Shown here piece by piece: positions 22,578-39,158 of a stretch of 64,000 nt of DNA. The stretch is from NCBI GenBank assembly GCA_023133415.1, contig JAGLWM010000005.1, positions 4,602 through 68,601 of the forward strand, given 5' to 3'. Numbering within the stretch: position 1 is the first letter of the stretch; each line of letters begins with the position of its first letter. This DNA comes from Candidatus Pacearchaeota archaeon (GTDB lineage: Archaea; Nanobdellota; Nanobdellia; Pacearchaeales; GW2011-AR1). Below the pieces are notes generated by a model. That model made no database searches, was not told the DNA's origin, and saw nothing but the letters and a program-made list of their open reading frames with translations. A program made the position numbers and the translations under genes.

Positions 22578-23903
22578 ATGAGAAAAACAATAGATATAAA
22601 CAATTTAATGGTTAATCCTGAAAACTATCGTTTTGACCCAGTTGAAACTCAAAGTGATGCTATTGACTTAATGTTAGAAGAAAAGGGTAATGAAATTTTC
22701 AATTTAGCCAAACATATTATCTATAATGGAATAGACGAGGCAAAGAATTTAAGAGTAAGCGAAATCAAAAAGGATTTATACAAAATTCTTGAAGGCAATA
22801 GAAGGGTTACGGCAATTAAATGTTTAAATGACCCAAATTTAATAAAAGGAGATTCTCTTAAGAATAAATTCAAGAAATTAACTGAAGAAGCCAAAAAAGA
22901 AAAGAAATCTTTCCCTTTGAGAATTAATTGTTTTGTATATAAAACTGAGGAAGAAGCTGCGACTTGGATTAAATTAGACCACACTGGGAAAAATGATGGT
23001 GTTGGATTGGTTGAGTGGGGGAAAGCAGAAAGAGATAGATTTGAGCAAAAATTCGAAGGTAAATCAAGCCCGGCAACCCAAGCCGTTGATTTATATGAAT
23101 CTATTATGAAAACAAAAATTAAAGATAGAAATAAATTGAAGCTATCTACAATTAATCGTATCTTGTCAAATGCAGAATCTAGGGCATATCTTGGACTAGG
23201 AAAAACTAATGAAGAAATCTACCCCACAACTTCCCTGAAAGAAGTTGGAGAAAGATTAGATAAACTTTTCAATAAAATGATTTTGGAAGACATTAATGTG
23301 AAAGAAGTTTATACAGCAGAATTAACAGAACAATTTATGAAAAATCTGTATGGAGAAAAACCAAAACCTTCAAAACGAACCGTAAAGGTTCCTCCTAAAG
23401 CGAAAAAGAAAGCGAAAAAGAAAGCGAAAAAAAGATTACCTAAATCTAATGGAAGAAATATATTAATCCCAAACACCTGTGATTTAGAAATACAAGAAAA
23501 AAAGATAAATAATATCTATCATGAACTAATGGAAATTCCATTAGACAAACTCACAAATTCAGCAGGAGTATTATTTAGAGTTTTTTTAGAAGTTAGTTTG
23601 GATAAATACGCAGCACAAAAAGGAATAAATTTCTCCCCTCAAGCAAAACTATCAAGTAAAATAGCTACAATATCTAAAAAGTTAGAAGATGAGGATGTGG
23701 CAAGCAAAGAACAGCTTAGAAACATAATAAAAGTTGGGACAAAGGGCAATTCCATACTTTCAATTGACCACTTTAATGAATATGTTCATTCTATAAAAAT
23801 TCAGCCACTCCCAGTGGATATGATAAACGCATGGGACAACCTACAGGAATTTTTCGAGATATTATGGGAAGAGATTTCGAAAAAGGAAAAGGTAAAAAAA
23901 TGA
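22578..23903 (+). CDS. ParB/Srx-like N-terminal domain protein with HEPN-like C-terminal domain
   Basis: 'NPENYRF', 'ILEGNRRVTAIK'; C-terminal 'AGVLFRVFLE...NEYVH'. Confidence 0.6.
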   Translation: MRKTIDINNLMVNPENYRFDPVETQSDAIDLMLEEKGNEIFNLAKHIIYNGIDEAKNLRVSEIKKDLYKILEGNRRVTAIKCLNDPNLIKGDSLKNKFKKLTEEAKKEKKSFPLRINCFVYKTEEEAATWIKLDHTGKNDGVGLVEWGKAERDRFEQKFEGKSSPATQAVDLYESIMKTKIKDRNKLKLSTINRILSNAESRAYLGLGKTNEEIYPTTSLKEVGERLDKLFNKMILEDINVKEVYTAELTEQFMKNLYGEKPKPSKRTVKVPPKAKKKAKKKAKKRLPKSNGRNILIPNTCDLEIQEKKINNIYHELMEIPLDKLTNSAGVLFRVFLEVSLDKYAAQKGINFSPQAKLSSKIATISKKLEDEDVASKEQLRNIIKVGTKGNSILSIDHFNEYVHSIKIQPLPVDMINAWDNLQEFFEILWEEISKKEKVKK

Positions 23904-24739
23904 CATTTTATTCCCCACTAAGATATCCTGGAGGTAAGGGGAAAATGTCTAATTATTTTAAAAAAGTATTTAAAGAAAATTCTTTAATGGGCGGAACTTA
24001 TGTGGAGCCATATACTGGAGGAGGCTCTGTAGCTCTATCTTTGCTAATTGAAAAATATGCTTCAGAAATTATAATTAATGATGTTGACCGTTCAATTTAT
24101 GCTCTTTGGTATTCAATATTAAATTATACTAATGAGCTATGTGAGTTAATCGAGAAAACTCCCATAACAATAAAAATATGGAAGAAGCAAAAAGAAATAC
24201 AAAAAAATAAAGAAGAAGAAGATGTTCTAAAATTGGGATTTTCTACATTTTTCTTAAATAGAACCAATCGTTCTGGAATATTAGGAGCTGGGGCCATAGG
24301 AGGATTAGAGCAAAAAGGAAACTGGAAAATTGATTGTAGATATAATAAAAAAGCTCTAATAGAAAGAATAAAGAAAATTGCTTCTCATAAAAAAAATATC
24401 CAACTTTATAATTTAGACGCGGTGAAGTTAATTGAAAAATTACAGAGTGAGCTTTCTGAAAAAACTCTTTTTTACTTAGACCCTCCTTATCATGAAAAGG
24501 GTAAGGAACTTTATTTAAACCATTATGATAACGATGACCATAAAAAAATATCTCTTGCGATAGGAAAAGTAAAAAAACAAAAATGGCTAATAACTTATGA
24601 TAATACAGAATTAATTAAAAAATTATATAAGAAATATAGTAAATTGGATTATCTTTTAACATATACGGCCGGCAAAACAAAAAAGGGTAAAGAGTTAATG
24701 ATATTTTCAGATAATATGAAAATTGTTGAATACCAATAG
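23900..24739 (+). CDS. DNA adenine methyltransferase (D12/Dam class)
   Basis: 'SPLRYPGGK', 'EPYTGGGS', catalytic 'DPPY'. ATGA overlap with the upstream gene at 23900-23903. Confidence 0.92.
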   Translation: MTFYSPLRYPGGKGKMSNYFKKVFKENSLMGGTYVEPYTGGGSVALSLLIEKYASEIIINDVDRSIYALWYSILNYTNELCELIEKTPITIKIWKKQKEIQKNKEEEDVLKLGFSTFFLNRTNRSGILGAGAIGGLEQKGNWKIDCRYNKKALIERIKKIASHKKNIQLYNLDAVKLIEKLQSELSEKTLFYLDPPYHEKGKELYLNHYDNDDHKKISLAIGKVKKQKWLITYDNTELIKKLYKKYSKLDYLLTYTAGKTKKGKELMIFSDNMKIVEYQ

Positions 24740-24740
24740 A

Positions 24741-24923
24741 TTATTTTCTACATATCTTTCCAAACACTCTCCTCAAAACAAACAACTCCCCACTCCTCCA
24801 CTCCGTCAAATCTTCCTTTCCCTCCAAATCCAAACTATCCAAATAAGCCCCCCACAACTCATCCAACAACTTCCCCTCGACAACAATCCGCTTAGGCTCT
24901 ATCATATCCAACCTCCATCTCAT
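24741..24923 (-). CDS. Small hypothetical protein downstream of the integrase
   Basis: 60-aa ORF overlapping the integrase 3' end. Confidence 0.4.
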   Translation of the reverse strand: MRWRLDMIEPKRIVVEGKLLDELWGAYLDSLDLEGKEDLTEWRSGELFVLRRVFGKICRK

Positions 24924-26049
24924 TTACCTTCACCATAATCATTTTCATCTGTGCCTCCAAAACCTTAATCTTATCATTAGATATCTCCAACTTCTTTTCC
25001 GTATACGAAAGCTGTTGCTCCAATTCCGTCTTTGTAGTATCCACAAACATATCTTCTTCGCTAATCGTATCTTTCATCCCCAGCAACTCAGAATAATAAT
25101 GAATTTTATCACTCTTCTTCCACCCAAAACGATATTTTAAAGCAGATTCAGACTTATATCTAGTCAGCCAATAACAACAACTACAATGTCTAAAGTCATA
25201 CATCGTAAGTTGCTTATATTTTTGCCCAGCCTCACTCATATCATCCCCAAAGACTCTTTCCGCCAACCTGTTGAAATATTTATTTACAGTCTGTGGTTTT
25301 ATTGGGAAAAGATAATCAGTTGGTTTAAGTTGATTATACTCCACATGTTTTCTTAACAAATCGGAACAAAGCATCAATTTTATTCTTCGCCCAAAAGTCT
25401 TACTAACCTCGTCTCTAATATTAACTTCTTTGTAATTGTTATGCAAATCTCCAACCTTAACATTAATCAATTCAGTCGGCGACCTAATTCCAGTATCATA
25501 TAGAAACATAATAAGAGCCTTGTAGTGAGGTTTTGCACTATCACTCAACCTTTTCACCTGCTCTTCTGTCAGGTATACCCATTTTGGCTTAGTCCCCCTG
25601 CTATCTAAATCTACGGTTACATCTTGAATATCCATATCCTTCTTCCTATTCACTATTTGCCACCAATGCCAAAACGCCTTGAAAATTTTTACAAAGGAAG
25701 GCATTGACAAATATGGCTTCCCATCTTGTCTGCAGATTTCCCCCTTTCGCATCTTTGAAAAGAATAACATTACTTGCTCCTCTGTTATTTTAGTTATATC
25801 ATCTAAGCCGTATACCTCATCAAATCTTTTAGCATAATAAACCATCTTCTCAGTCAAAGAATTTAACCTAATATAATTCTGTCCACCCTTAACGCTCTTC
25901 GCTGAGACATTAAGCCCATGCTCCATGTCATGCAAATACTGCTTTATTATTTCAGAGTTCTTTTTGCTTATGTCTGGAATTCCGTTAGCAGTATTTGCCT
26001 TCCACCTATTCCATCTTTCTTCATGTTTATATGGGTCAATCTTTACCAT
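24892..26049 (-). CDS. Tyrosine recombinase/integrase
   Basis: Catalytic R in 'YDTGIRSPTE', 'YDFRH', 'RFGW', nucleophile in 'IHYYS'; C-terminal coiled-coil tail. Confidence 0.92.
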   Translation of the reverse strand: MVKIDPYKHEERWNRWKANTANGIPDISKKNSEIIKQYLHDMEHGLNVSAKSVKGGQNYIRLNSLTEKMVYYAKRFDEVYGLDDITKITEEQVMLFFSKMRKGEICRQDGKPYLSMPSFVKIFKAFWHWWQIVNRKKDMDIQDVTVDLDSRGTKPKWVYLTEEQVKRLSDSAKPHYKALIMFLYDTGIRSPTELINVKVGDLHNNYKEVNIRDEVSKTFGRRIKLMLCSDLLRKHVEYNQLKPTDYLFPIKPQTVNKYFNRLAERVFGDDMSEAGQKYKQLTMYDFRHCSCCYWLTRYKSESALKYRFGWKKSDKIHYYSELLGMKDTISEEDMFVDTTKTELEQQLSYTEKKLEISNDKIKVLEAQMKMIMVKVNEMEVGYDRA

Positions 26050-26091
26050 AAAAATCTTAGATAAAAATTCTTTATAAAAAACCTATAATGG

Positions 26092-26109
26092 ACCTGTACA
26101 TGTACAGGT
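26092..26109. promoter_or_regulatory. Perfect 18-bp palindrome upstream of the integrase
   Basis: ACCTGTACATGTACAGGT, 43 nt upstream of the integrase start codon. Confidence 0.55.
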
Positions 26110-26151
26110 TCTGTAGGTAATATTTAAATATATATTTTATCTGCATACCTT

Positions 26152-26778
26152 ATGATAAAACAATTGAGTTTTCAAAACTTTTATGTCTTTGAAATAACTC
26201 TAGGAATTTTATCGATATTGGCGGGATTTAGTTACGGAACTCAAATCAGTCCATATTTTTTATTATTGTCATTATTGGGCGGGGGAGTGGTTTTTGATGG
26301 AATAAAAAGGTGGTATGAAGTTCAAAAAAACAAAGAGATATTAGAAGGTTTAGATTTAGATTTTGATATAAAACGTATTGACGCAGAAGCAGATTTGGAA
26401 TTCATCCCCGAAGATATTGTTGATGGACAACCTGTTGGAGAATGGCATACTGAACATAATGTTAAGTATAAGATTGAAATAAATGTTTTTAATCCTTCAA
26501 CTATAGAAAATGTAGTAAGGGACATCAGGGTAGAATTTAAAAAAAATAAACGAATTTCAGATATAGGAATAAAGTCTTCCGAAGATTTAAACAGATTCCC
26601 AATTTCATTAAAAGGAAGAACTCATGAAAGAATTATTTTCCATACCGGTTTTTCAAACACTTTAGGGAAAAAAGGGGACAAATTAAAAATAACTTTGGTT
26701 ACAATAGACAATAAGAAAATTTCTAAGGATATAAAAATTAGCCATTATAGAGAAGGCGAGCAATTGAGAAGAGGGTAA
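26152..26778 (+). CDS. Hypothetical membrane protein
   Basis: Two N-terminal TM segments and a soluble beta-rich C-terminus. Confidence 0.6.
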   Translation: MIKQLSFQNFYVFEITLGILSILAGFSYGTQISPYFLLLSLLGGGVVFDGIKRWYEVQKNKEILEGLDLDFDIKRIDAEADLEFIPEDIVDGQPVGEWHTEHNVKYKIEINVFNPSTIENVVRDIRVEFKKNKRISDIGIKSSEDLNRFPISLKGRTHERIIFHTGFSNTLGKKGDKLKITLVTIDNKKISKDIKISHYREGEQLRRG

Positions 26779-26813
26779 AAGCTCACCAATTTTGTACACT
26801 TTGTACGACCATT

Positions 26814-26824
26814 CGGTTGGGGCG
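26814..26824 (+). repeat. att-like core identical to the tRNA-Asp 3' end, inverted relative to the array
   Basis: CGGTTGGGGCG equals the last 11 nt of the tRNA at 51550-51621. Confidence 0.7.
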
Positions 26825-26903
26825 CAGAAAGAAATGTTCAATTCGTGTGAACTTTTGATTGATTTTTAGGTAGTTTTTTATAATCATTAAACATGTTATA
26901 GCT

Positions 26904-27119
26904 ATGACAAAAAGGAAAGGACATGCTAAAGGATTTATCACAGGATTAGTTTTTTTACTTTTAGGAGTCAGCTCTTATTATATTCTTACTTTCAGACAAA
27001 TGGCTTCTTCGTCTCCCAATCCCCTTGTGATTATGGGGGGGATGTATTTTGGTGGTTTTTTAGCTCTTTTTGGTTTTGTCATTCTTGGAGCTTCTTTAGT
27101 AAAATGGCTTGATCTATAA
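26904..27119 (+). CDS. Small 2-TM hypothetical protein
   Basis: Two hydrophobic helices. Confidence 0.55.
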   Translation: MTKRKGHAKGFITGLVFLLLGVSSYYILTFRQMASSSPNPLVIMGGMYFGGFLALFGFVILGASLVKWLDL

Positions 27120-27206
27120 TCCAATCAAACAATTAGGTAATTAATATTAAGGCTATACTCTCCTATTACTAGCGGTTGGAGGCATGAGAACCTTCTAGCA
27201 ATTTGT

Positions 27207-28628
27207 CTATATTTTTATCCATGAAGGTTCGATTAACAAATTATCCATTAAATTCAACTGCAAACTAAGCTTGGTTTCTGTTCCCACGCTATCAATAGGA
27301 GTTGTCAAAATATTCCCCTGTGCATTTGAAAGATCAATTAATCCCTCTCCTCCGATATCTGCTTGATACATAATAACAAGAATTATTTCGGAATCTTTTT
27401 CATTAATTAGTTCTGGCATTCCAGCAATCTCTCCTTCGATTAAAGGAATAAATTTGCCATCATCTCCTCTGAGATTTTCAATAATTTTAAGTACAATTTT
27501 CACAGCATTAGTAGCTTTTAGTTTTCCAAAAGCAATATAATTTGTTGCAAAAATTGGCGTCCATCCTTTAATTTTAATCTCCTCAATTGCCCTTCTAATA
27601 TCTTCCTCTAAACAATCCCCATTGCTAATTGAGATTATTTTTTGACCAATAAAGTTTCCCTTAGTTTTATTAAAACGATATGAAAATAAATCTTTTGACC
27701 CAACGACTCTGTCATCAAATGTGAAAGGCACAATTTTTTTAATTATATCGTTAGCTAAGTGGTTTTCATCAGCATCAACTTCTGTTGTATCATAACTTAA
27801 TTCTTCTGAAAACTGATTATTCTCTTTGATATAATCAATTGCATTCTTAAAAATATTAAGAGCATGATTATAATAAACAGGAATATCTTTTTTCTGTCTC
27901 TTAAGTTTTTCTTTCATTTTCTGAAAATCAGGAGAGCTAGCACTTAATATTGCTCTTTCAGGATGAGGCATCATCCCAAGAATTCTTCCACTATCATCAC
28001 AGATTCCTGCAATATCTTTCAAAGAACCATTTGGATTAAAAGGAAATTCTCCCTTAGATGACTCCCCATTTGGAAAAGTGTAAGTAAAAACAATTTGGTC
28101 GTTCTTTTCAAGTTCTTCTAATATATATTCACTTGCAAAAAATTTTCCTTCACCATGTGCTACAGGAATATATAATTTGTCAAGACCTTTTGTAAAAACA
28201 CATTTAGTATTATTGTTTTTAAGGTATACCCATCTACATTCATATTTTGTAGAATTATTAAAAGTTAATGCGGCCTGTCTTTTTCCATAATCTTTATTCA
28301 GCGAAGGTAATAATCCTAAATTAATTAAAACTTGAAAACCATTACAGATTCCGATAATAAGTTTACCTGAATTAATAAACTTCATTAATTCATCCCAAAG
28401 ATTCAATCTTATTTTGTTGGCCATTGCATTACCAGAGCCGGTATCATCACCATAAGAAAAACCACCAGGAAAAGCAAGAATTTGATAATCATTTAAGTTT
28501 TTTTCTTTATTTATTAAATCGTTTACATGAACAATTTCTGTGTTACCTCCTGCAAGATCGAATGCATGTTTTGTTTCTCTCTCGCAATTAATTCCATATC
28601 CTGATAACACCAGTATCCTCGGTTTCAT
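27207..28628 (-). CDS. purQ: FGAM synthase glutaminase subunit PurQ fused to degenerate, truncated PurM-like segments
   Basis: 'GGFSYGD', 'GICNGFQ', 'AHGEG', 'MPHPER'. The tail has 'SYDTTEVD', 'NYIAFGKL', 'GEIAGMPE', 'PIDSVGT'. Confidence 0.85.
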   Translation of the reverse strand: MKPRILVLSGYGINCERETKHAFDLAGGNTEIVHVNDLINKEKNLNDYQILAFPGGFSYGDDTGSGNAMANKIRLNLWDELMKFINSGKLIIGICNGFQVLINLGLLPSLNKDYGKRQAALTFNNSTKYECRWVYLKNNNTKCVFTKGLDKLYIPVAHGEGKFFASEYILEELEKNDQIVFTYTFPNGESSKGEFPFNPNGSLKDIAGICDDSGRILGMMPHPERAILSASSPDFQKMKEKLKRQKKDIPVYYNHALNIFKNAIDYIKENNQFSEELSYDTTEVDADENHLANDIIKKIVPFTFDDRVVGSKDLFSYRFNKTKGNFIGQKIISISNGDCLEEDIRRAIEEIKIKGWTPIFATNYIAFGKLKATNAVKIVLKIIENLRGDDGKFIPLIEGEIAGMPELINEKDSEIILVIMYQADIGGEGLIDLSNAQGNILTTPIDSVGTETKLSLQLNLMDNLLIEPSWIKI

Positions 28629-31597
28629 TATTTTTTAAACCTCCTCTTGTAGCCATCTGTCAAATCTTTTACATTTATTTTTATAATTTCATTACCTTCT
28701 AATCCAATTACACTAAATTCCTCTTCAACAATTTTACCGATTTTTGCAAAACTGACATTCTTAAAAATTTCTTCAAACTTTTCTTTATTTTCTGGAGCAA
28801 TTGTAACAATAATTCTTGATTGACTTTCACTGAACAAAATAAAATCATCTCTGTCAACATTTTCAGCCCGATTTAATCCTGTCAAATCAATTTTCGCGCC
28901 CAATTGTCCAGCAATACAAGTTTTTGCTAAAGCAACTCCTAGTCCTCCACTATTAACAGGAATACTACTTGCAATCACACCTTCATTAATAGCCTTATTA
29001 AACGCAGAATATATTTGATAAGCCATTGAAGCATTCACTTTTGGTACAGAATTTCCAACATATGGCTCACCTCTTTCATTTTCTCCAACAAGTTCAAAAT
29101 ACTCACTCGCACCAAGCTCATTTTTGGTTTCCCCAATTACATAAACTAAATCATCTGTAAACTTGGCATCAAGAGAGACAATCTTATTATAATCATCAAC
29201 AATTCCAATAGAAGAAACAAGCAAGGTAGGCAAAACAGAAATTTTCGTTGGATTGTCATTTTTATCATATCCCTTAAAATCATTAAACATACTATCTTTT
29301 CCAGAGATAAAGGGTGTCTTATAGGCTATAGAATAATCATAACATGCTTTAGCAGCCGCTTTCAGTTGGCCCAACCTTTCCGGGTCATTAGAACTACACC
29401 AGCAAAAATTATCAAGCAAAGCAAGTCTGTTTAGATCTCCTCCGGCAGCAATAACATTTCTAACCGCCGTATCAATTGCAGATGCAGCCATATCATATGT
29501 ATCTATTTGACTATATTTTGAATTAATACCTTGACTTATAATAATTGCTTTATTGGAATCATATAAGGGTTTTGTCGCTGTCGCATAGGCATTAACCTCT
29601 CCTATTCCTTGCAGTGGTTTTAAAATTGAACTCGCTTGAACCTCGTGGTCATATTGCCTTGATATAAATTCAAAACCTGCAATGTTATGTCTTGATAGCA
29701 TTTTTAATAAAATAGAATTCAAATTGAAAGGGAAACTAAAATTGGGTTCCTCATAAGTTTGTTTTGTATATGTTGAACTTAATGTTTTTTTAGGGGCTCC
29801 ATCATGCAAGAAATCCATATCTATATCAAGAATAACCTTCTCTTTATATTTAACAATAGCCCTGTTGCTATCATTAAATTTTCCAATGACGGTGGCCTCA
29901 ACGCTTCTCTTCTCCATTAGCTCAAGGAAAGCTTCGATTTTGTCCTTTGGCACTGATAAGGTCATTCTCTCTTGTGATTCGCTAATCCAAATCTCCCATG
30001 GCTGAATCCCAGGATATTTTACAGGATTCTTTTCCAAATCCACCACAAAGCCGCCGCATTCTCTCGCCATCTCTGCAACAGAACACGAAATCCCTCCCGC
30101 TCCGTTGTCCGTAATACTATTATATAAATTGAGATCACGAGCTCCTTTAACAATGGCATCACTTAATTTTTTTTGTGTTATTGGGTCTCCAATTTGAACT
30201 GCTGTTGCAGGACTTCCAGAATCCATTGCCTCTGAAGAAAAAGTAGCACCATGAATCCCATCTTTTCCAACTCTTCCTCCAACCACAACAATATAATCCC
30301 CGGGTTGTGCCTCTTTAGTATGACTTGGTTTTCCCTTAAGATCTCGTGGTATTAAACCAATTGTGCCAACAAATACCAGAGGTTTCCCACGATAACTATT
30401 ATCAAAATAAACAAATCCCTGAGGAGTTGGAATCCCCGAACAATTTCCTCCAACTTCTACCCCTTCTATTACACCATCCATAATTCTTTTTGGAGATAAT
30501 ATTTGATTTGTTTTGTTTTCTCCTCTAAATAATAGGCTTTTATCTTCAGGATATCCAAAGCAATAACCATATCTATTAATTATAGGCATAGCTCCCTGTC
30601 CAAATCCGATAGTATCTCTATTGACGCCCACAATGCCAGTAATGGCTCCCCCAAAGGGGTCGAGTGCAGAGGGGCTATTATGAGTCTCTACTTTATCTGT
30701 TACTAAATAATTTTCATCAAAAATTATTGCCCCTGAATTATCTTTAAACACGGATACGCAAAAATCTCTGTCTCCTCTTTCGGTTCTTATTTTATTGGTA
30801 GCATTTTGTATATATTCCTTGTAAATCCCTTTTTCAATTTCATCTATTTGATTAGCAAAAATAGTATGTTTACAGTGTTCAGACCATGTTTGTGCAATTG
30901 ATTCTAATTCAATATCAGTCGGCATTCTCTTCTCTTTTTTAAAATAATCTCTAATAATCTTCATAGAATCCAGATCAAGTGCCAAGGGGCCTCTTCTTGA
31001 GCCATCTTCATTCATAATTCCCTGCTTGCCAATTTTAATTAATTCTTCGTCATTTATATCTATATTTACAATATCTGATTTTGGTTCTTGGAGTAATTTA
31101 ATTCTAGGAATAATGTAATCCATGCCATTATCTTCCATATATTTTTGTTTATTTTTTACATGAACTCTTTGAATAACCTTATTCGAAAGATCTTCTGCTA
31201 TATTCTTTATATCTTCTTCCTTAAAATCGCCTTCGATAAATATCATTTGTGAAGTGAAAATAATAGTTTTATCAAATTTTATGCCGAACAAATCATGAAT
31301 ACTCTCTTGTGTTGTATGCGCGACATTGTCTGTAACTCCTGGAAGAAAACCAATTTCTATAATCCAATTTGTTTGCATATCGGTTGGAGAATTTATTTTA
31401 TATGTTTGTGTTATGGGATTCGCAAGCATCTTCGAAATCTTTTCTAGTTCGTTAGAAGAAAATTCGTAATCAAGTGTATAAACATAAGTCAATTTAATAT
31501 CTTTAATATTAGAGAACCCCATCTTTTCAATTCCAGTTTTAATGGCTGTTGCTTGAGCATCTGAAATTTTTGAACTAATTTCAATTCTGTGAGTCAT
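28628..31597 (-). CDS. purL: Phosphoribosylformylglycinamidine synthase PurL with PurS-like N-terminal extension
   Basis: 'WSEHCKH', 'ETHNSPS', 'ITDNGAGG', 'SESQER', 'ISGKDS', 'FSESQSR'. Confidence 0.93.
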   Translation of the reverse strand: MTHRIEISSKISDAQATAIKTGIEKMGFSNIKDIKLTYVYTLDYEFSSNELEKISKMLANPITQTYKINSPTDMQTNWIIEIGFLPGVTDNVAHTTQESIHDLFGIKFDKTIIFTSQMIFIEGDFKEEDIKNIAEDLSNKVIQRVHVKNKQKYMEDNGMDYIIPRIKLLQEPKSDIVNIDINDEELIKIGKQGIMNEDGSRRGPLALDLDSMKIIRDYFKKEKRMPTDIELESIAQTWSEHCKHTIFANQIDEIEKGIYKEYIQNATNKIRTERGDRDFCVSVFKDNSGAIIFDENYLVTDKVETHNSPSALDPFGGAITGIVGVNRDTIGFGQGAMPIINRYGYCFGYPEDKSLLFRGENKTNQILSPKRIMDGVIEGVEVGGNCSGIPTPQGFVYFDNSYRGKPLVFVGTIGLIPRDLKGKPSHTKEAQPGDYIVVVGGRVGKDGIHGATFSSEAMDSGSPATAVQIGDPITQKKLSDAIVKGARDLNLYNSITDNGAGGISCSVAEMARECGGFVVDLEKNPVKYPGIQPWEIWISESQERMTLSVPKDKIEAFLELMEKRSVEATVIGKFNDSNRAIVKYKEKVILDIDMDFLHDGAPKKTLSSTYTKQTYEEPNFSFPFNLNSILLKMLSRHNIAGFEFISRQYDHEVQASSILKPLQGIGEVNAYATATKPLYDSNKAIIISQGINSKYSQIDTYDMAASAIDTAVRNVIAAGGDLNRLALLDNFCWCSSNDPERLGQLKAAAKACYDYSIAYKTPFISGKDSMFNDFKGYDKNDNPTKISVLPTLLVSSIGIVDDYNKIVSLDAKFTDDLVYVIGETKNELGASEYFELVGENERGEPYVGNSVPKVNASMAYQIYSAFNKAINEGVIASSIPVNSGGLGVALAKTCIAGQLGAKIDLTGLNRAENVDRDDFILFSESQSRIIVTIAPENKEKFEEIFKNVSFAKIGKIVEEEFSVIGLEGNEIIKINVKDLTDGYKRRFKK

Positions 31598-31687
31598 GAG
31601 ATAAATTAGTACTTTTCATTTATAAGAATTTATATACCTAAAGACTATTTGAGAAGTTTTTATAAAGTGAGGTTGTGATTAATTGAT

Positions 31688-32344
31688 ATGGTGATACGTG
31701 CGATATTTTTTGATTTTGATGGAACGATTTCGGATGCTAGGAAGATTGCTGAGGATTCGTTGGTTTTGACTTTGGATGAGTTTGGTTTTGAGTACGATAA
31801 GAGGGTGGCTTTTGGTTTGTTGGGAATTAAGATGCGGTTTATTTTGGAGGGATTAGGGTTGAAGAATGAGGATATTAGGACGGTGCGGAAGAGGTTTTAT
31901 GAGCATTTTACACGGATGGCGAAGGAGGGCGGGATTAGTCCGTGTGTTTCGTTGAAGCCGCTTTGGGAGATGAAGAAGGATTTGCCGTTGATTGTTGTTT
32001 CAAATTCGGATGTTGGATTTTTGAAGGTGTCGATAAAGAGGTTGAAGCTTGAGGGGTTGTTTAGTGAGGTTTATGGAGCGGAGAAGGATTGTCAAAAGGA
32101 TGAGATTTTGAAGAAGTTGTTTGAGAAGATAGGGATTAAGGCGTCAGAGACTATTTATATTGGGGATAGATTTTCGGATGTTGATTTTGCACGAAAGGCT
32201 GGTTGTGTTTCTGTGGCGATTCATAATAAGTGTTCGTGGTCGAGCTTGGCTGATATTAAGAAGGAGAAGCCGGATTTTATTGTGAGAGATTTTTATGGGT
32301 TGAGAGCGGTCATTAATGGTATCAATGCTCAATCACTGTTGTGA
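31688..32344 (+). CDS. HAD-superfamily hydrolase
   Basis: 'FDFDGT', 'VSN', 'YIGDRFSD'. Confidence 0.9.
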   Translation: MVIRAIFFDFDGTISDARKIAEDSLVLTLDEFGFEYDKRVAFGLLGIKMRFILEGLGLKNEDIRTVRKRFYEHFTRMAKEGGISPCVSLKPLWEMKKDLPLIVVSNSDVGFLKVSIKRLKLEGLFSEVYGAEKDCQKDEILKKLFEKIGIKASETIYIGDRFSDVDFARKAGCVSVAIHNKCSWSSLADIKKEKPDFIVRDFYGLRAVINGINAQSLL

Positions 32345-32514
32345 TTGGAAAGGCTCACTTTGTGGAAAGGCTCAATTCTTTTTAAGAATTGGTGAGGCTC
32401 ATGCTTCGCATGGAGGCTTGGCGAGTGGTTGGAAGAATCGACGGAAAAGTTTACTTCGTGGAAAAGTTCAGCTTTGCTGGAGACTTGGCGAGTGTGAAAC
32501 CGTGTGTTTGTCTT

Positions 32515-33648
32515 TTAGTTTTCTTTGACGAATGCAAGAAGTATTGTTGCGATGATTGCCACTGCGAATATATAGGTGAACATTATTTGCGGTGAGATGT
32601 CCCAAAGGATTCCGGCGATTAAGCCTGCTGCTATGTTCACGAGTCCTGTTACAAAATAGTAGACTCCCATTGCTGTTGCTTTCATATCGCCTGCGAAATC
32701 TGAAACGAGTGCTTTTTGATTTGAGAGTGTGATTGCGCTTACGAGACCGTATGCTGCGAAGATTATTGTTATTGATTTTAGGTCTGAAGTATTGAAGACG
32801 AATGCAAGGCTGACAGCTGCAAAGAGAAGAAAGCCGGATAATAGGACTTTTTTTCTTCCTATTTTGTCGGAGAGTTTTCCGAAGAAGATCATGAAGGCTG
32901 CGGAGATTATATTGAAGAGAAGGTAACAGAGAAGGGGGATTACAAAGCTGCCTGTGATGTTTTTGATCATTAGTAGGATGAAGAGATATAGTCCGAAGTT
33001 TGCGAGTGTGAAGACGGATAGGGTTAAGATTATGTATTTTAGTTTTGGGTTGAGGCTGTTTAGAGATTTTAGGAAGTTGGTTTTTTTGGGTTTTAGTTTT
33101 TTGGTTTTTAGGAAAAAGAGCGGAACAAGAGAGAGTGTGGATATAGCTGCTGCTGTTAGTATGATTTTTGGGAAGGACCATTGGAATTTCCAGAAAAGAA
33201 GGAGGACGAATAGGGAACCTATGATTGCGCCTGATGTATCCATAGCTTGGTGGATTCCAAAGCTTCGGCCTCTTTTTTTTGCTGTGTCAATTAGGATTGC
33301 GTCTCGTGGGGCGTCGCGAATTTTTCCGAATCTTTCGAGGGAGATGAAGGTGATGATTTGGTGCCATGATGTTGCGAAAGCTAGGAATACTCTGAAGATG
33401 ACTGATGTGAAGTAACCTAGGAATATGAAATGTTTTCGTTTGCCCGTGATGTCGGAGAGGTAGCCGCCTAGAAGTTTGACTAGGCTTGAGAGTCCTTCCC
33501 TGAGGCCGGAGATTAGACCTAGTGCGAGACCTGCTCCTCCGAAGGCTGTTATCATAAAAGGAAGAAGAGGGGTTATCATTTCACTGCCGATGTCGTTTAC
33601 TAGACTAGAGCCACCTAATAGGTAAATATTTTTGTCACCCTTTTTCAT
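32515..33648 (-). CDS. MFS transporter
   Basis: About 12 TM segments; 'GYLSDITGKRK', 'GKLSDKIGRKK'. Confidence 0.92.
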   Translation of the reverse strand: MKKGDKNIYLLGGSSLVNDIGSEMITPLLPFMITAFGGAGLALGLISGLREGLSSLVKLLGGYLSDITGKRKHFIFLGYFTSVIFRVFLAFATSWHQIITFISLERFGKIRDAPRDAILIDTAKKRGRSFGIHQAMDTSGAIIGSLFVLLLFWKFQWSFPKIILTAAAISTLSLVPLFFLKTKKLKPKKTNFLKSLNSLNPKLKYIILTLSVFTLANFGLYLFILLMIKNITGSFVIPLLCYLLFNIISAAFMIFFGKLSDKIGRKKVLLSGFLLFAAVSLAFVFNTSDLKSITIIFAAYGLVSAITLSNQKALVSDFAGDMKATAMGVYYFVTGLVNIAAGLIAGILWDISPQIMFTYIFAVAIIATILLAFVKEN

Positions 33649-33679
33649 ATTTTAGTGAGGGGCTTTTGGTTTATAAATT

Positions 33680-34228
33680 TTATAGAAGATTTATTAGGTA
33701 GCCGAAAATAATTATTCCGATTGCTCTCGGGATTAATCCGTATATTATGAAATTTCTTGTTGAAAAGTTCATTGCTCCGAAGAGGACGGGAAGATAGGGA
33801 AATGGTGAGATTGCTGTGATTGGTATGATTATTTTTCCATATTTGTTTGTGATCAGTGTTAGTTTTTTTGTTGATTTTTTTGATGTTAAGATGTCTACGG
33901 CTTTGAACATATATCTCTTGCCTAAAGAAAATCCTATGATTGAGCCTAGTGTTGAACCTATGATGGTGGCTAAGATTGCCAGAGTTGTATTTATGTTCGT
34001 AAAAATTGCTGCTGCTAGGATCATTGCTGGGGAAAGCATTTGAGGGATGAGATCCAATAGAAAGGAGATAACGAAGATTCCGTATAGTCCGTAAGTTTGG
34101 ATTTGGGATGATGCTTGGTCGTTTACGATGTCTTGATTTATCAGGCTGTATGACAGTATTGCTAAGATTGTTAATATTATTATTGCGTTTACAAATTTTA
34201 TTATGTTTTTAGTTTGAGCTTTTTTCAT
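33680..34228 (-). CDS. DedA/VTT-family membrane protein
   Basis: 'GSTLGSIIGFSLGK', 'AISPFPY', 'F..YGLIPR'. Confidence 0.7.
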   Translation of the reverse strand: MKKAQTKNIIKFVNAIIILTILAILSYSLINQDIVNDQASSQIQTYGLYGIFVISFLLDLIPQMLSPAMILAAAIFTNINTTLAILATIIGSTLGSIIGFSLGKRYMFKAVDILTSKKSTKKLTLITNKYGKIIIPITAISPFPYLPVLFGAMNFSTRNFIIYGLIPRAIGIIIFGYLINLL

Positions 34229-34700
34229 TTAACTGGAGTGCAGATTTCAAAATATTTAGTTCGAGGTCTTGATTTTTTTTGAGGAATTTATTGAAAAGAG
34301 ATTGGATATTTTTGTCTTGTTTTCTTTTTGTTCCTTTGATGTTTTTTAGTTTGGCGTAAAGTTTTACTTCTTTGTCAGAGAGATAGAGCAGTGGGCAGTG
34401 GGCAGTAGGTAGTGGGTAGTGGAATTTTCCCCTGATGATATTTTTGAATATGTCTTCTGCTATCTGGGAGAGATTATCTGCGGAGATGTTTGGAGAGGTT
34501 GAATGTTTTAGTTGAAATTTTGTTTGGAGGATTTGTTTTAGGGTGGCTGTGTTTAGGTCGTTGCTTTTTTTGAGTGTGAAGAGCTTGTTTTTTGGGAGCA
34601 TCTGGAATCTTCGGATTGTTCGGAAGACTTTTCGTTCGAAGTAGTTTAGGAATTCATTTTTGTTTAGTTCGCGACCGTTTGTAAATTTCCAGACTTTCAT
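34209..34700 (-). CDS. Hypothetical protein resembling a degenerate TtuA/Ncs6-like tRNA thiolation fragment
   Basis: 'FLNYFERKVFRTIRRF', 'PLLYLSDKEVKLYAKL'; no PP-loop. It is next to the thiouridylase-like gene. Confidence 0.45.
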   Translation of the reverse strand: MKVWKFTNGRELNKNEFLNYFERKVFRTIRRFQMLPKNKLFTLKKSNDLNTATLKQILQTKFQLKHSTSPNISADNLSQIAEDIFKNIIRGKFHYPLPTAHCPLLYLSDKEVKLYAKLKNIKGTKRKQDKNIQSLFNKFLKKNQDLELNILKSALQLNEKSSN

Positions 34701-35632
34701 TTTAATTTAGGGGCTAAAGATTTTTTTTCGCTTAATTGATATATTGTGAATTTATTTCGTTTTTCTTCGTTGTCTCCGGTTGAGTAGGCTTCTTGGAGCT
34801 CCAAAGCTGTGTTTCCGCTTGGTCGCTGATGCATGTATACCGATGGTTTACCTATATCATCTGGAATATGGTTTTTGAATGTTGAGATGATTTCGGATTC
34901 TTTGGCGTTTCGTGCGACGACGAACCATGTGTCATTGATAAAAAAGTGTCTGCCGATTGTTGTTAGAGGTAAGGTTTTTTCTGTAATTAGATTTTTTTCG
35001 AGTAGGTGTTTTATTCTTGAAGCTGGAACTTTTTCGCAAAGAAGACAGCCACCTCCAGGAGAGGGGTATTTTATTTTGTATTTTTCTGCTAATTTCATTT
35101 GCTCTTTTCTTCCTCTTCCAGTGATTTTGAGAAGCTTGTTTCTGTCGACTAGTCCGGATTTTTCGAAGGAAGTTTCTTTTAGTTTTTTTGCGCAAAGTGG
35201 TCTTAGGATTTCGAAACCTAATTCCTCGTCGATTGTTTTTATTGCTGAAGGGACTTGGGACATTGGTCTTTGACCTATGACTTCGCCTGTTGCTATGATT
35301 TGGATTTTGTGTTTGTTGGCGTATTCTTTGGCTTTTTTTAACATAAATATTTTGCAGTCTTTACATGGATTGATTCCGGCTCCGGCTCCGTATTTTGGAG
35401 ATTTTAGGATCTTGAGATATTCTGAGAGGAGGGGTTCTTTGTGGACGTCGAGGATTTTTAAATTGATAGGTTCTCTTTGAATGAGGTTGAGGTTGCAGTT
35501 CATATTGCTGCATCCGCAGCCGAATGGGAGAGCGAAGTAGAGAGCGGTAATTTGGAAGTCTTGATCTTGGAGGAGGCGTATGACTAGGCGAGAATCGAGG
35601 CCGCCAGAATAAAGGACGAGTGCTTTTTTCAT
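34697..35632 (-). CDS. PP-loop tRNA thiouridylase-like (ThiI/MnmA-related) protein
   Basis: 'SGGLDS', 'PCKDCK', 'TGEVIGQRPMSQ', 'PSPGGGCLLC'. Confidence 0.78.
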   Translation of the reverse strand: MKKALVLYSGGLDSRLVIRLLQDQDFQITALYFALPFGCGCSNMNCNLNLIQREPINLKILDVHKEPLLSEYLKILKSPKYGAGAGINPCKDCKIFMLKKAKEYANKHKIQIIATGEVIGQRPMSQVPSAIKTIDEELGFEILRPLCAKKLKETSFEKSGLVDRNKLLKITGRGRKEQMKLAEKYKIKYPSPGGGCLLCEKVPASRIKHLLEKNLITEKTLPLTTIGRHFFINDTWFVVARNAKESEIISTFKNHIPDDIGKPSVYMHQRPSGNTALELQEAYSTGDNEEKRNKFTIYQLSEKKSLAPKLK

Positions 35633-35664
35633 AAAGATGTTCAGGGAAACTAATTTAAGAAGTT

Positions 35665-36141
35665 TTAGATTTCAGCAAATATGGTGACGTAGTTCTTGCC
35701 ATATTTTTTTGAACATTTTGGACATGTCGGGTGGTAAAAATACAAATTCTTGATTTCTTTGTTTTGAGTTTTGACATATTCTTTCATTTGCTCGACCCAT
35801 TGTTTCATATTTTTACGTGGACCTTCGAATACTTTTGTTAGAAATGTGCCGGAGACTTTTATGTCGAGCGCTCTTTTTATTGGTTTTTTTGCGCTGATGT
35901 AAACATTAGAATAAAATGGGGATTTTTCGTCAGAGAGCACTATTCTTTCTTTGTCGTAGGCTTTTGCTGCTTTTAGTCTTTTGATGTTTTGAGTTATGAC
36001 GCTGTTGAAATTTAGTGGAATGTGGAAAAATGAGAAGACTTTATCTTTGACGAAAAGTTTGTCTTTCCATGTTATTTTTTTGTTGTTCCATTTTTTGGGA
36101 TTAAATTTTGGACAACAAAAGTTCGTATCACCTTCTTTCAT
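35665..36141 (-). CDS. Conserved hypothetical protein, GyrI-like 'hydrolase' family
   Basis: 'CCPKFNPKKW', 'FFHIPL', 'FLTKVFEGP', 'YHPTCPKCSKKYGKNYV'. Confidence 0.7.
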   Translation of the reverse strand: MKEGDTNFCCPKFNPKKWNNKKITWKDKLFVKDKVFSFFHIPLNFNSVITQNIKRLKAAKAYDKERIVLSDEKSPFYSNVYISAKKPIKRALDIKVSGTFLTKVFEGPRKNMKQWVEQMKEYVKTQNKEIKNLYFYHPTCPKCSKKYGKNYVTIFAEI

Positions 36142-36204
36142 TGTTAGTTGAAGTTGAATTTCTATTTAAAGGTTTGGATGGTGGGGGTCATTCGGTGGTG
36201 GGTA

Positions 36205-36293
36205 GGAAGGTTCCGAGAGGTCAGATGTCAGAATTCAGGGGTCGGATGACTTGGTGGGTGGTTGGAAGGTTATGAGAGGTCAGATGACTTGGT
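36205..36293 (+). repeat. Short intergenic direct repeats
   Basis: 23-mers at 36205-36227 and 36264-36286 (21/23 identical); GATGACTTGGT twice. Confidence 0.6.
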
Positions 36294-36305
36294 TGGTGGT
36301 CGGGA

Positions 36306-36758
36306 TTAGTATCCACCATAGACTTCTAGTTCTTCAGAGTATCCATTATGGTCGAAATCGAAGTTGAAGATGAATAGGAATTCTATTGTTGGGCGGACAC
36401 CTAAGCCGGCTTCTTTGACAAGTTTGTGGAGGTGAGTTGTGAAGCAGAGGGGGCAGACGTGGACGGATTTTTGGCATACGACGCAGGGTTTTGATTTTGC
36501 TTCTATATGATTGTGGTATTTCATGAAGGGTTTTAGTTTTGCCTTGATTTGTTTCGCTTCGGGGAATTTTTTTATCCATTCTTCAAAGGCTTTTGCTATG
36601 CAGTTAGGGCAGAGTGGGTGAGTTATGTCGTTGCCGCAGGAAAGGCAATAGTTGTGGATTTCTTTTTCAAAATTATATGTCTGTTTAGCGACATTTCTTT
36701 TCTTTTTCATTTGAAATGTCGCGTGATTAATAGAACTTAACAATAGCAAATCCGGCAT
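36306..36758 (-). CDS. Cys-rich (zinc-binding) hypothetical protein
   Basis: Four CxxC motifs: CLSC, CPNC, CVVC, CPLC. Confidence 0.7.
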   Translation of the reverse strand: MPDLLLLSSINHATFQMKKKRNVAKQTYNFEKEIHNYCLSCGNDITHPLCPNCIAKAFEEWIKKFPEAKQIKAKLKPFMKYHNHIEAKSKPCVVCQKSVHVCPLCFTTHLHKLVKEAGLGVRPTIEFLFIFNFDFDHNGYSEELEVYGGY

Positions 36759-36832
36759 AGGATAAAAGGGTATTAGAATTCCAAGTACAGTTCATCCTTT
36801 TTGTTTGCATGAATAAAAGAGGAAGAAAGGGT

Positions 36833-37858
36833 TTATATATTTTTTGGGTAGGCTAGTTTTTCGAGTTTTTCGAGTTCGTCTCTTTTGGATTCTATTTCTG
36901 AGAGTAGGTTTGTGATATGTTGTGCTGCTGTATTTTTAACGTCGAGAGGATGGATGGATTTTTCTTTGACTGCTTTTTCTAGTTCTTCGTAAGTTTGGAA
37001 TTCTAGGTTGCCACCGAATTTTTCTGGACGTTCTATGAGTAGTTTTTCGTTTTTGTCTCGGAGAAGTGTGAATATGATGTATTTGAAAAATGCCATTGTT
37101 CCGTTGTCTGGGTTGCCCTCTTTGAAGTCTGCCAAGTTTACTTTTTTCTGGATTGTTTTTTTATCGTCCATTAATCCTATTTTTGAGGCTTCTATCGATG
37201 AGGACATTTTTTTGCCTATGAGTCCTGGCAGGAAGGGTACCATTAGTTCGATTCGTTTTTTGTATCCGAGTTTTGGCAGTTGTTCTCGCGCTAGAACGAA
37301 AATTTTTCTTTGGTCTATCGCTCCGATTTGCATGTCGACTTTTAGATATTGTTCGTCGAGGGCTTGCATTAGTGGGTAGATGTAGCCAGAGAGTTTTGGG
37401 TTGGTTCCCATTTTTACGACTTCGCTTGCGGCTTTGTGGCAGTCGTGGACTGAGGTCATGCTTGAGAGCTTAAAGATGTCGAGGACGTATTCTTTTGAGA
37501 GTTGGAAGTCGCTTCCTTTTACGAATTCTAGTTTTGTTATGTTGGTGCCCATTGCTTTAATCATTAGTGGGATTATTTTTGAGTAGAAGTTGTATCGGTG
37601 TTCGAGGATTTCCCATGGTGTGTTGTCTAGTGCTGCGTGTAGGTCGGCGATTAGGACTTTGACTCTAAATCCTGCGTTTAGTAGATCTGCAAGTTTTAGT
37701 CCCCAGATGAAATAACCGATGTGTGGGGCTCCTGTTGGTGCGGTTCCGATGTAGACCGAGAGTTCTTTGTTTGATTCGAGGAGTTCTTTGAGTTCGTCTT
37801 CTCCGATTATTTCGGCTGTGTTTCGTTTTATTAGTTCGAATTTTTCTTGGGGGTTCAT
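36833..37858 (-). CDS. tyrS: Tyrosine-tRNA ligase (archaeal type)
   Basis: 'YIGTAPTGAPHIGY', 'YPLMQALD', 'GAIDQRK', 'KMSSS'. Confidence 0.95.
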   Translation of the reverse strand: MNPQEKFELIKRNTAEIIGEDELKELLESNKELSVYIGTAPTGAPHIGYFIWGLKLADLLNAGFRVKVLIADLHAALDNTPWEILEHRYNFYSKIIPLMIKAMGTNITKLEFVKGSDFQLSKEYVLDIFKLSSMTSVHDCHKAASEVVKMGTNPKLSGYIYPLMQALDEQYLKVDMQIGAIDQRKIFVLAREQLPKLGYKKRIELMVPFLPGLIGKKMSSSIEASKIGLMDDKKTIQKKVNLADFKEGNPDNGTMAFFKYIIFTLLRDKNEKLLIERPEKFGGNLEFQTYEELEKAVKEKSIHPLDVKNTAAQHITNLLSEIESKRDELEKLEKLAYPKNI

Positions 37859-37895
37859 GGGAAGATATGGGAGTTGAAGTTTTTAAGGGTTTGTT

Positions 37896-37939
37896 TGGGT
37901 CAATCTTCCCATGAAAAACTTAGATAAAAATTCCTTATA
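37896..37939 (-). pseudogene. Relic of the integrase 5' end (promoter region plus first codons)
   Basis: 40/45 identical (1 gap) to 26032-26076, which spans the start of the intact integrase. Confidence 0.75.
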
Positions 37940-38011
37940 ATAAATTTGTAGCGGTGTTGTAGTGGATTTTGAGATAAAAAGTTTAATAAGTGAGTAAGCC
38001 AATTTATTTAC

Positions 38012-38527
38012 ATGATTTACAATATTGCTTTAGTTTTCGAGGAAAGAATTAATAAGCAGATTCATGATTTTTATGGGATAATTAAAGATAATTTGAATCT
38101 TGAATTTGGTTTAGAGAGTCGATCCATTCCGCATGCTACACTTATAAAATTTGAATCTAAAGAGGAATTGAACTCAGAAAAGCTTTCGAGCATAATTGAA
38201 GACATGGCTGATGATATTAAAGTGGATTTTTCTGGTATCACATTACTTCCTTCTAAATCTTCTATTGACTGCTGGGTAGAGCTATCAATATTAAAAAGCC
38301 AAAAATTAATCGAGATTCAACGAGTTCTCATTAGCAAGTTAAAAGATTATGATATTGTAAGTGGTATTAATGATAGATTTAGGCCGCATATCACTTTTTG
38401 TAAAACTAAAAATTGTGAATTTAATATCATGAATTTGGATTCTTCGCTCTTAAGAAGAGGTGGGGTTAATGCGAGGTTGGTTATTGGTGGTGTCGATTCT
38501 AATTTTGAGTTTTTTGAAATAAGATGA
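38012..38527 (+). CDS. 2H phosphoesterase (2'-5' RNA ligase family)
   Basis: Two HxT motifs: 'PHATL' and 'PHITF'. Confidence 0.85.
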   Translation: MIYNIALVFEERINKQIHDFYGIIKDNLNLEFGLESRSIPHATLIKFESKEELNSEKLSSIIEDMADDIKVDFSGITLLPSKSSIDCWVELSILKSQKLIEIQRVLISKLKDYDIVSGINDRFRPHITFCKTKNCEFNIMNLDSSLLRRGGVNARLVIGGVDSNFEFFEIR

Positions 38528-39018
38528 AATCTAAAATAATAATTGTAGATGAGAAAGATGAGGTAATAGGACATAAATTAAGAGGCACATTAGATAAAGA
38601 AGATATTTATCAAGTATCTGCACTTTGGATTACTAATTCCAAAGGAGAAATTCTTTTAGCTAGACGCCATCATACAAAAACTCATCATCCAAGAAAATGG
38701 GGTCCTGCTGTTGCGGGGACGGTTGATGAGGGTGAGAGTTACTATGATAATATAATTAAGGAAGCGGAAGAGGAATTGGGACTTAGAGATATTGAGCTTG
38801 AACTTGGTCCCAAGAGAGAAACGAATGGGGAGTATCATCATTTTACTCAATGGTATCATTTGGTTATTGATAAAGATATTAACGATTTTACAATACAAGA
38901 AGATGAGGTTGAAGAAATTAAATGGTTTTCTTTAGGAGAATTAGAAAATCAATTAGAGGTAAATCCTGAGGAATTTTTGCCTAAAATGAAAAGCTACTTT
39001 GAGTTATTTAAGTCTTAA
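38524..39018 (+). CDS. NUDIX hydrolase (IDI type 1-like)
   Basis: 'IVDEKDEVIG', 'AGTVDEGESY...IIKEAEEELG'. Confidence 0.85.
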   Translation: MKSKIIIVDEKDEVIGHKLRGTLDKEDIYQVSALWITNSKGEILLARRHHTKTHHPRKWGPAVAGTVDEGESYYDNIIKEAEEELGLRDIELELGPKRETNGEYHHFTQWYHLVIDKDINDFTIQEDEVEEIKWFSLGELENQLEVNPEEFLPKMKSYFELFKS

Positions 39019-39093
39019 CATCCCTCAAAAATCGTAAGAATGTATGTACTTTTTGTCCAGCAAGAATTTCTAAAATATACTAAAATGAGAAGA

Positions 39094-39142: not shown

Positions 39143-39158
39143 AGGGGTGACCACAGAA

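Follow-up and report, generated by a model that had tools for sequence, protein, structure and literature searches.

The integrase genes and attachment-site remnants in a 64,000-nucleotide stretch of a Candidatus Pacearchaeota genome (the window) are probably best explained as traces left in this genome by three related integrase elements. The window covers positions 4602–68601 of contig C17 of an 836-kb assembly, which consists of 21 contigs and is about 86% complete. The first element, on contig C1 of the same genome, would be an 8.2-kb insertion in tRNA-Glu that has kept its integrase intact together with both 11-nt direct repeats. The second would have been a C1-like element of core, 85-nt arm, two cargo genes, promoter and integrase, located at the far, oldest edge of a stack of elements at tRNA-Asp. 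An illegitimate deletion would have removed it from integrase codon 9 onwards, stopping at the essential tyrS promoter and leaving a 73-nt relic. The third would be a separate island within a 12-kb foreign block, in which the intact integrase at 24.9–26.0 kb is accompanied by the PD-Lambda-5 gene pair. Upstream of this integrase and divergent from it, the island would contain one cargo gene, an attR-type arm, and a tRNA-Asp core designated c7. The c7 junction would be the site of a past recombination between an Asp-type core and an element of this integrase clade.

Native and foreign parts of the window differ in base composition at third codon positions. Throughout positions 1–64000, the plus strand is rich in G and T at these positions whichever way the native genes point. 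The third-position G and C fractions (G3 and C3) are 0.18–0.47 and 0.02–0.06 in native plus-strand genes, and 0.05–0.09 and 0.17–0.39 in native minus-strand genes. The skew separates these genes from the recently acquired regions 19485–31597 and 38012–51300, and from the C1 element, whose third-codon composition is of the same foreign type as that of the window blocks.

The C1 element and the relic at the edge of the tRNA-Asp array

The C1 element shows the normal integrated layout of the integrase family. It is bounded by direct 11-nt repeats of CGGTGGGAGCG at C1:54121 and C1:45909, one of them formed by the 3′ end of tRNA-Glu. In the direction of the tRNA, the element is composed of the tRNA, core, an approximately 85-nt arm, one cargo gene, promoter, integrase, small genes, distal arm, and core. 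The integrase is full length between the repeats, and the gene is thus not disrupted by integration. It is the sole paralog of the window integrase in the genome, with 69% amino-acid identity. The integrase start and promoter of the two copies agree at 53 of 57 positions (93%), compared to 75% across the gene.

A third copy is represented by a fragment on the minus strand of the window. The preliminary description of this DNA, made from the letters alone, had proposed a relic of the integrase 5′ end at the far edge of the tRNA array, and blastn searches of the whole 836-kb genome both confirm it and extend it to 37889–37961. The relic contains a TATA-like box, an ATG (37911–37909), and eight codons with a 1-nt deletion. 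Positions 37889–37944 match 26025–26081 of the window integrase (86% over 57 nt, E = 7e-10), and 37889–37962 match the 5′ end of the C1 integrase (81% over 75 nt, E = 1.6e-11). In a three-way alignment, the relic, window, and C1 sequences share about 50 nt of promoter, the ATG, and eight codons, after which the similarity ends. The local-alignment score of the relic is 14 standard deviations (sd) above that of random 74-mers from the genome. In its upstream part, the relic resembles C1 more than it does the window integrase, and even the two intact genes are 93% identical over this stretch. Therefore, the relic is a third integrase copy and not a duplicate of the 25-kb gene. The assembly contains no further integrase fragment besides the relic and the two intact genes.

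The relic abuts the native leader and promoter of tyrS (37859–37894, minus strand), which includes a CTTAAAAAC box and is conserved upstream of tyrS in the genus genomes G003, G041, and G001. In the alignment with these relatives, the sequence is native from about 37894 to the tyrS ATG, and the homology to integrase ends at about 37889. The deletion joint is thus located at about 37889–37894, exactly at the conserved tyrS promoter, and has a few bases of microhomology. Since the two homologies meet at this point, the deletion would have begun at integrase codon 9 and extended to the tyrS core promoter. Capture of the integrase promoter by tyrS was considered and rejected, because tyrS retains its native leader with its own TATA-like box. 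A perfect 11-nt inverted repeat, CATGGGAAGAT at 37856–37866 and ATCTTCCCATG at 37903–37913, pairs the tyrS start-codon region with that of the relic ATG, and the relic retains a nine-codon open reading frame (ORF; MGRLTQTNP) ending in the tyrS TATA-like box. Both features may be due to chance.

The array itself begins at tRNA-Asp(GTC) (51550–51621, minus strand; identified with ARAGORN), the sole tRNA of the window, the sole tRNA-Asp of the assembly, and the source of the core. The core, CGGTTGGGGCG, comprises the last 11 nt of the tRNA. Its array copies are all on the tRNA strand, at 51550, 44371, 42919, 41275, 40254, and 39094; those at 44371, 41275, and 40254 are exact, that at 42919 has one mismatch, and that at 39094 has two. 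A full tRNA at one end with direct partial-tRNA repeats downstream is the arrangement of a tandem tRNA island. The foreign, unameliorated region 38012–51300 takes in all the array cassettes.

The outermost unit of the array ends in core c6′, CGGTTGGGACA (39094–39104, minus strand), the two mismatches of which are at its 3′ end and which is a candidate attL-type junction of the decayed element. It is followed by a tRNA-proximal (P′-type) arm of about 85 nt (39004–39093, minus strand) with 76% identity over 84 nt to the C1 stretch beside the tRNA-Glu 3′ end. The cargo (38012–39018, plus strand) has an unameliorated composition and consists of a gene for a 2H phosphoesterase-like protein (38012–38527) and a NUDIX gene (38524–39018), both assigned by Pfam. 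Read from 39104 to 37889, the order is core, arm, cargo, promoter, and integrase start, in the same order and orientation as on C1, and therefore this segment is likely the tRNA-proximal end of a C1-like element. The 2H gene is present in one of 49 genus genomes; being unique, it yields no intact counterpart of the decayed element in that set.

These observations bear out the earlier proposal that the array once ended in its own integrase, now deleted. The far edge of an island in G041 is similar. There, an integrase lies 90 nt after tRNA-Asp and, approximately 62 kb further on, an arm and core are followed by a 76-residue ORF and then by chromosomal genes. In this ORF, the C-terminal tail directly follows the first 17 integrase residues; the ORF is thus an internally deleted integrase, which shows the same integrase decay. 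The decayed element at the array edge also shows that the clade of the C1 and window integrases has used the Asp core. The tRNA-proximal junction of the window array has no cognate integrase, which is present at this position in nine relatives; the array carries only the relic, at its distal edge. The adjacency of tyrS and tRNA-Asp in the window is a derived state, since the two genes are apart in G041, G003, G005, G009, G012, G013, G015, G017, G043, and G045.

The intact integrase, its core and its island

The window integrase (24892–26049, minus strand) is a tyrosine recombinase of 385 residues. The preliminary description called it intact, and this is upheld by a PF00589 match of 49.1 bits at residues 159–320 (cut-off 27.1) and by an end-to-end alignment with 25 homologs, in which the window integrase retains every invariant column. 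The residues R189, K217, Y284xxR287, W310, and Y318/Y319 are in invariant or near-invariant columns of the 26 aligned sequences, and the HxxR motif is replaced by Y284-D-F-R287. The only match to a solved structure is a distant one, to XerA of P. abyssi (4A8E, E = 0.002), with R189 and R287 aligned to XerA motifs. The protein also has a long N-terminal domain and a coiled-coil-like C-terminal tail. It is presumably active. The G3 of the gene is 0.31 and its C3 is 0.08, although it is on the minus strand; this composition looks like that of a gene long resident in the other orientation.

Homologs of the integrase come from metagenome-assembled genomes (MAGs) labelled Woesearchaeota, Pacearchaeota, or Nanoarchaeota, and number 165 among species-representative genomes and 539 in metagenome contigs. 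Comparisons within the genus are based on sets of 31, 41, or 49 genomes, as given with each result. Among 31 genus genomes, 21 have a homolog. In nine, the homolog is 75–180 nt downstream of tRNA-Asp in the same orientation, and the other targets are tRNA-Glu (five), tRNA-Gly (two), and tRNA-Tyr (one); the homolog in G013, a single case, is convergent with tRNA-Asp. Among the best 80 of the 539 metagenome relatives, tRNA-Asp is directly upstream of 20, tRNA-Glu of four, and tRNA-Ser of two, always co-oriented. Thus, where the preliminary description considered that orthologs might target a different tRNA, the homologs do follow tRNA-Asp.

The nearest relatives of the window integrase, with 69–70% identity, are located at tRNA-Glu. 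In a maximum-likelihood tree, it is sister to the tRNA-Glu-linked pair of C1 and G003 (support 98/93). Asp- and Glu-linked integrases interleave on the tree, and therefore we dropped the attempt to read target specificity from phylogeny. The tRNA-Asp and tRNA-Glu cores differ at only two of 11 positions. The comparison shows that this family, which has a pNOB8-type signature and is common in Woese-, Pace-, and Nanoarchaeota, switches readily between tRNA-Asp and tRNA-Glu.

Core c7 (26814–26824) is an exact copy of CGGTTGGGGCG on the plus strand, opposite to the tRNA and the array, as the preliminary description had noted. Core matches with at most one mismatch number six in the window, with approximately 0.15 expected; outside the window, the core has a single additional exact copy in the whole genome. 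The 40-nt stretch left of c7 (26774–26813, plus strand) resembles the attR arms of both the C1 and the G003 elements. Within it, ACCAATTTTGTACACTTTGT at 26785–26804 resembles the arm before the distal core of C1, matching it at 17 of 20 positions with a score of 13, whereas random 40-mers from the genome have a mean of 5.9 (sd 1.27; p about 0.00025). The array cores c2, c5, and c6′ are preceded by arms of the D1 type, which score no better than random against the c7 arm. Core c7 is followed by C, where every other core has a T, and its right flank lacks the arm-like ATGGGTG motif. On the basis of the arm–core–other DNA structure, c7 can be read as a putative attR-type junction. We infer that it was made by the window integrase, and likewise infer the order of events.

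Relative to its own integrase, c7 is flipped compared with the C1 core. The layout of an integrase, a divergent spacer of approximately 100–120 nt, one cargo gene, arm, and core is also found in G041 and G015; a second instance in G015 is probable, judged from coordinates only. In the clade of G013 and G018, it is whole elements that stand inverted to the cores. An inverted core is thus a geometry that recurs in the integrase family and no oddity. A weaker core that had been reported at 27172–27183 is at chance level: the site (27173–27183, plus strand) has three mismatches and many equally good neighbors, with approximately 25 such plus-strand sites within 10–28 kb alone, and we rejected it as a feature.

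The island is part of the foreign, unameliorated block 19485–31597, which contains two activase genes, ORF243, a ribbon-helix-helix-like ORF, the PD-Lambda-5 pair, the integrase, ORF208, ORF71, purQ, and purL. The block (19.4–31.6 kb) occupies a variable spot between the S-layer gene and HAD in a backbone order, ThrRS, KaiC, TrpRS, S-layer gene, variable spot, HAD/MFS to TyrRS, that is common to G041 and G003. Directly downstream of the integrase, positions 24778–24880 have 77% identity over 103 nt to C1:51491–51592. A ribbon-helix-helix-like ORF of 70 residues (22309–22521, plus strand) resembles, in both protein and DNA, a 67-residue ORF of the C1 element (L009:7905–8108).

The PD-Lambda-5 pair (22578–24739, plus strand) is formed by a ParB-like protein A (22578–23903) and a D12/Dam-class methyltransferase B (23831–24739; PF02086). 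Both match the PADLOC models over their full length (PD-Lambda-5_A, E = 1.6e-114; PD-Lambda-5_B, E = 1e-121), and the genes are adjacent and overlapping. The cargo next to the integrase is thus predicted to be a complete PD-Lambda-5 anti-phage pair. It resembles the systems described by the PADLOC-DB models in these respects, differs in its archaeal host and integrase island, and is known here from its genes.

On the other side of the integrase, the divergent promoter region (26050–26151) includes the conserved integrase promoter (26050–26098) and a perfect 18-nt palindrome, ACCTGTACATGTACAGGT, at 26092–26109. C1 and the relic carry repeated CTACAA motifs where the window has the palindrome. 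The palindrome and the CTACAA motifs may be operator or integrase-binding sites. ORF208 (26152–26778, plus strand), a membrane-protein cargo gene without a match in Pfam or PADLOC, reads towards the arm and core.

Several observations weigh against formation of the c7 junction in place by the window integrase. Core c7 is in the interior of the foreign block rather than at an edge, and the sequence to its right (ORF71, purQ, purL) is foreign as well; therefore, c7 could have been imported with the block. The closest relatives of the integrase have another layout, in which tRNA, arm, cargo, and integrase are co-directional at tRNA-Glu. The similarity of the c7 arm to that of C1 is short, and its 17 of 20 matches involve a 9-nt register shift. 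No plus-strand core with up to two mismatches that could serve as attL is present at 15–26.8 kb, and no C1-type arm was found for the attL side at 19.4–24.9 kb. Plus-strand sites with three mismatches at 19350, 20652, and 21755 are all within conserved coding sequence and were rejected as attL. A 36-nt inverted repeat at 21369 and 26777 (78% identity) was likewise rejected as a junction, as dozens of others are equally good. Because the opposite junction is not recognizable, the island of the intact integrase is probably immobilized.

Alternative histories of the region

We consider it unlikely that the relic element and the intact island are two halves of one C1-like element, an attL half (core c6′, P′-type arm, cargo, and integrase start) and an attR half (integrase, body, C1-type arm, and core c7), which a rearrangement split so that the backbone from tyrS to HAD and the pur genes ended up between them. 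The halves are complementary, as the only C1-type tRNA-proximal arm of the window is at 39004–39093 and the only C1-type distal arm is at 26774–26813, and the two junction cores are inverted, as an inversion would leave them. However, both halves have the promoter and eight codons, and neither inversion nor translocation duplicates sequence. The copies are 86% identical in a stretch where the distinct window and C1 integrases are themselves 93% identical, and hence their similarity is uninformative on recency; the greater closeness of the upstream part of the relic to C1 also speaks against a split. The arm and core of the intact island are on the promoter side of the integrase and not beyond its body. 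A single inversion between c7 and an array core (c1, c6′, or variants) would flip the segment from tyrS to HAD relative to the S-layer gene, against an order that matches G003 and G041 and a skew that is fully native, and we rejected all such histories.

Equally doubtful is an integron-like platform, in which the intact integrase would be a resident recombinase that acts in trans, inserting and excising integrase-less gene–arm–core cassettes at the tRNA-Asp 3′ end, with the 24.9–26.8 kb module as a second, free-standing platform lacking a tRNA. More generally, the 11-nt tRNA-Asp end and a reused arm of approximately 40 nt would form a capture site in Woese- and Pacearchaeota, and family integrases, which are often divergent from one neighboring gene–arm–core unit, would act in trans to shuffle cassettes that lack an integrase and consist of a single gene or operon (NAD salvage, NUDIX, Fic, defence), a proposal that we regard as just as improbable. 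The array includes three cassettes with genes reading towards an arm and core (c2, c5, c6′), and the D1 arm and core are present in 10 of 31 genus genomes, among them G007, in which no integrase of this family is detectable. An integrase is divergent from such a cassette in G041, G015, and the window, and past use of the Asp core by the clade of the C1 and window integrases is evident from the decayed edge element. Against this, the D1 array arms have only random-level similarity to the arm at the integrase's own core, and the islands that they close in G015 and G041 have a tRNA-proximal integrase of a different clade. The majority of the family are ordinary island integrases adjacent to a tRNA, and no cassette turnover is seen between the window and a second public assembly (GCA_030630825.1, contig DAOVMK010000006.1). 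The preliminary description had named the 25-kb paralog as the likely trans-acting enzyme of the array. With its nearest relatives at tRNA-Glu, its own arm similar to the attR arm of C1, and the D1 arms at the random level, such action in trans is possible but unsupported.

A working inversion switch, in which the core at 26814 and those at 39094–51550 would flip 12–25 kb including tyrS, is highly improbable. The exact 11-nt cores c7 (plus) and those of the array (minus) do stand in inverted orientation near an intact integrase, and inversions due to archaeal tyrosine recombinases are known (PMC8371274, PMC5495485); the preliminary description had envisaged one here. Nevertheless, the minus-strand genes from MFS to TyrRS have C3 of 0.28–0.39 and G3 of 0.05–0.09, like native ThrRS and TrpRS, and plus-strand HAD has G3 of 0.47 and C3 of 0.02, and therefore the present orientation has been kept over long evolutionary time. 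The gene order is as in G003 and G041, and the second assembly has the same arrangement as the window. The pair of sites is also asymmetric: c7 has an attR-type arm on the left only and the tRNA core has no left arm, so that they do not form a symmetric inversion site. The public record of the second assembly calls antisense ORFs of 70, 65, 152, 75, and 146 residues over the MFS transporter, ORF182, and the PP-loop ATPase (window 32400–35600; L190). These calls are likely an annotation artefact of the skew, as native minus-strand genes are C-rich.

Neighboring features, known systems and implications

The sequence after the tRNA-Asp core (51499–51549) recurs after core c3 (42868–42918), and after arm–core junctions in G015 and G018 (L099:3748–3800; L093:2707–2760). 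This flank A consists of approximately 50 nt with the ATGGGTG motif, which is also present in arms upstream of tRNA-adjacent integrases, followed by TTATCGTTGCTG, which also follows the empty tRNA-Asp genes of G007 and G009. Our first impression that flank A is simply native downstream sequence was dropped after the arm-like motif was found before TTATCGTTGCTG; it may represent a scar together with native flank, or else a conserved arm. Elsewhere in the genome, tRNA-Ser and tRNA-Arg have short direct repeats of their 3′ ends, 116–277 nt apart (G000 C16:54877/55154; C11:2502/2618), which suggest further small att scars.

The genes purL and purQ (27207–31597) are accessory in the genus, with purQ found in only two of 41 relatives. 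The tail of the purQ ORF (residues 270–473) had been described as PurM-like. It is not detectably so, as it has neither a Pfam match nor BLAST similarity to the PurQ–PurM fusion of G008 (L013, G008:C49). The fusion partner of PurQ is a full PurM in G008 and a 200-residue domain without a detectable family in the window.

The G041 island beside the tRNA-Asp integrase (L074:11349–16470, G041:C1) encodes, as read from ORF translations, a UvrD-like helicase, a large ATPase, and a DNA methyltransferase. The helicase and ATPase are suggestive of a Gabija-type pair, which would be another defence cargo of the same integrase family.

The closest known counterparts of the array are the tycheposons of Prochlorococcus, which stack at one tRNA so that older elements are pushed outward and fragmented integrases and extra partial tRNAs remain (bioRxiv 10.1101/2020.12.28.424599). 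Both involve tyrosine-recombinase elements at a tRNA, direct repeats of partial tRNAs, displacement of older elements by newcomers, and adaptive or defence cargo. The array differs from tycheposons in its DPANN host, in a repeat of only the last 11 nt of the tRNA, in that most units are integrase-less cassettes of one gene or one operon with a reused arm, and in that the intact integrase is outside the tRNA array in the opposite orientation. The likeness to an integron is limited to a loose similarity of layout, a divergent integrase beside a gene, arm, and core; the arm at the integrase differs from the array arms.

Integrases of the pNOB8 type have the consensus R...YxxR...Y and remain intact as genes upon integration (PMC8371274). 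The window integrase has R189...Y284-x-x-R287...Y318 and an att site outside the gene, and its C1 paralog is intact between repeats at a tRNA 3′ end. The likeness is one of signature and undisrupted gene, and the family described here has the long N-terminal domain and coiled-coil-like C-terminal tail and comes from Woese-, Pace-, and Nanoarchaeota MAGs. SSV-type "suicidal" integrases are divided into int(N) and int(C) halves when they integrate (PMC7253208, PMC8371274). The relic is similar in that a short piece of the integrase 5′ end borders an integrated element next to a tRNA-derived repeat. Nevertheless, its core is 1.2 kb from the fragment and outside the reading frame, the fragment comprises only eight, frameshifted codons, the assembly contains no int(C) half or other integrase fragment, and the integrated paralog is unsplit. 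We thus rejected the split-gene reading, and the relic is a deletion product.

Integrase-linked chromosomal inversions have been described in Thermococcales (PMC5495485), including that of TKV2/TKV3 (PMC8371274). Related integrated elements or att-like sequences are inverted on the archaeal chromosome here as well, but no inversion is detectable, and the backbone order and strand skew indicate a stable orientation.

Archaeal tandem integration, integrase loss, and integrase-linked inversions have been reviewed (PMC8371274). Integration targeted to tRNAs, tandem stacking, and integrase decay are established biology, and the window represents the ordinary wear of tRNA-linked genomic islands without a new mechanism. 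The case is well resolved and holds moderate interest for the evolution of DPANN genomes. It provides a worked anatomy of the build-up and decay of integrase islands in a very small archaeal genome, including the attL and attR arms, core, promoter, targets, and cargo, and the third-codon strand skew of this genome both tells native from recently acquired DNA and dates its orientation. The integrase family carries defence (PD-Lambda-5) and metabolic genes (NAD salvage) into organisms known otherwise for gene loss, and purL and purQ lie in the same foreign block as the integrase.

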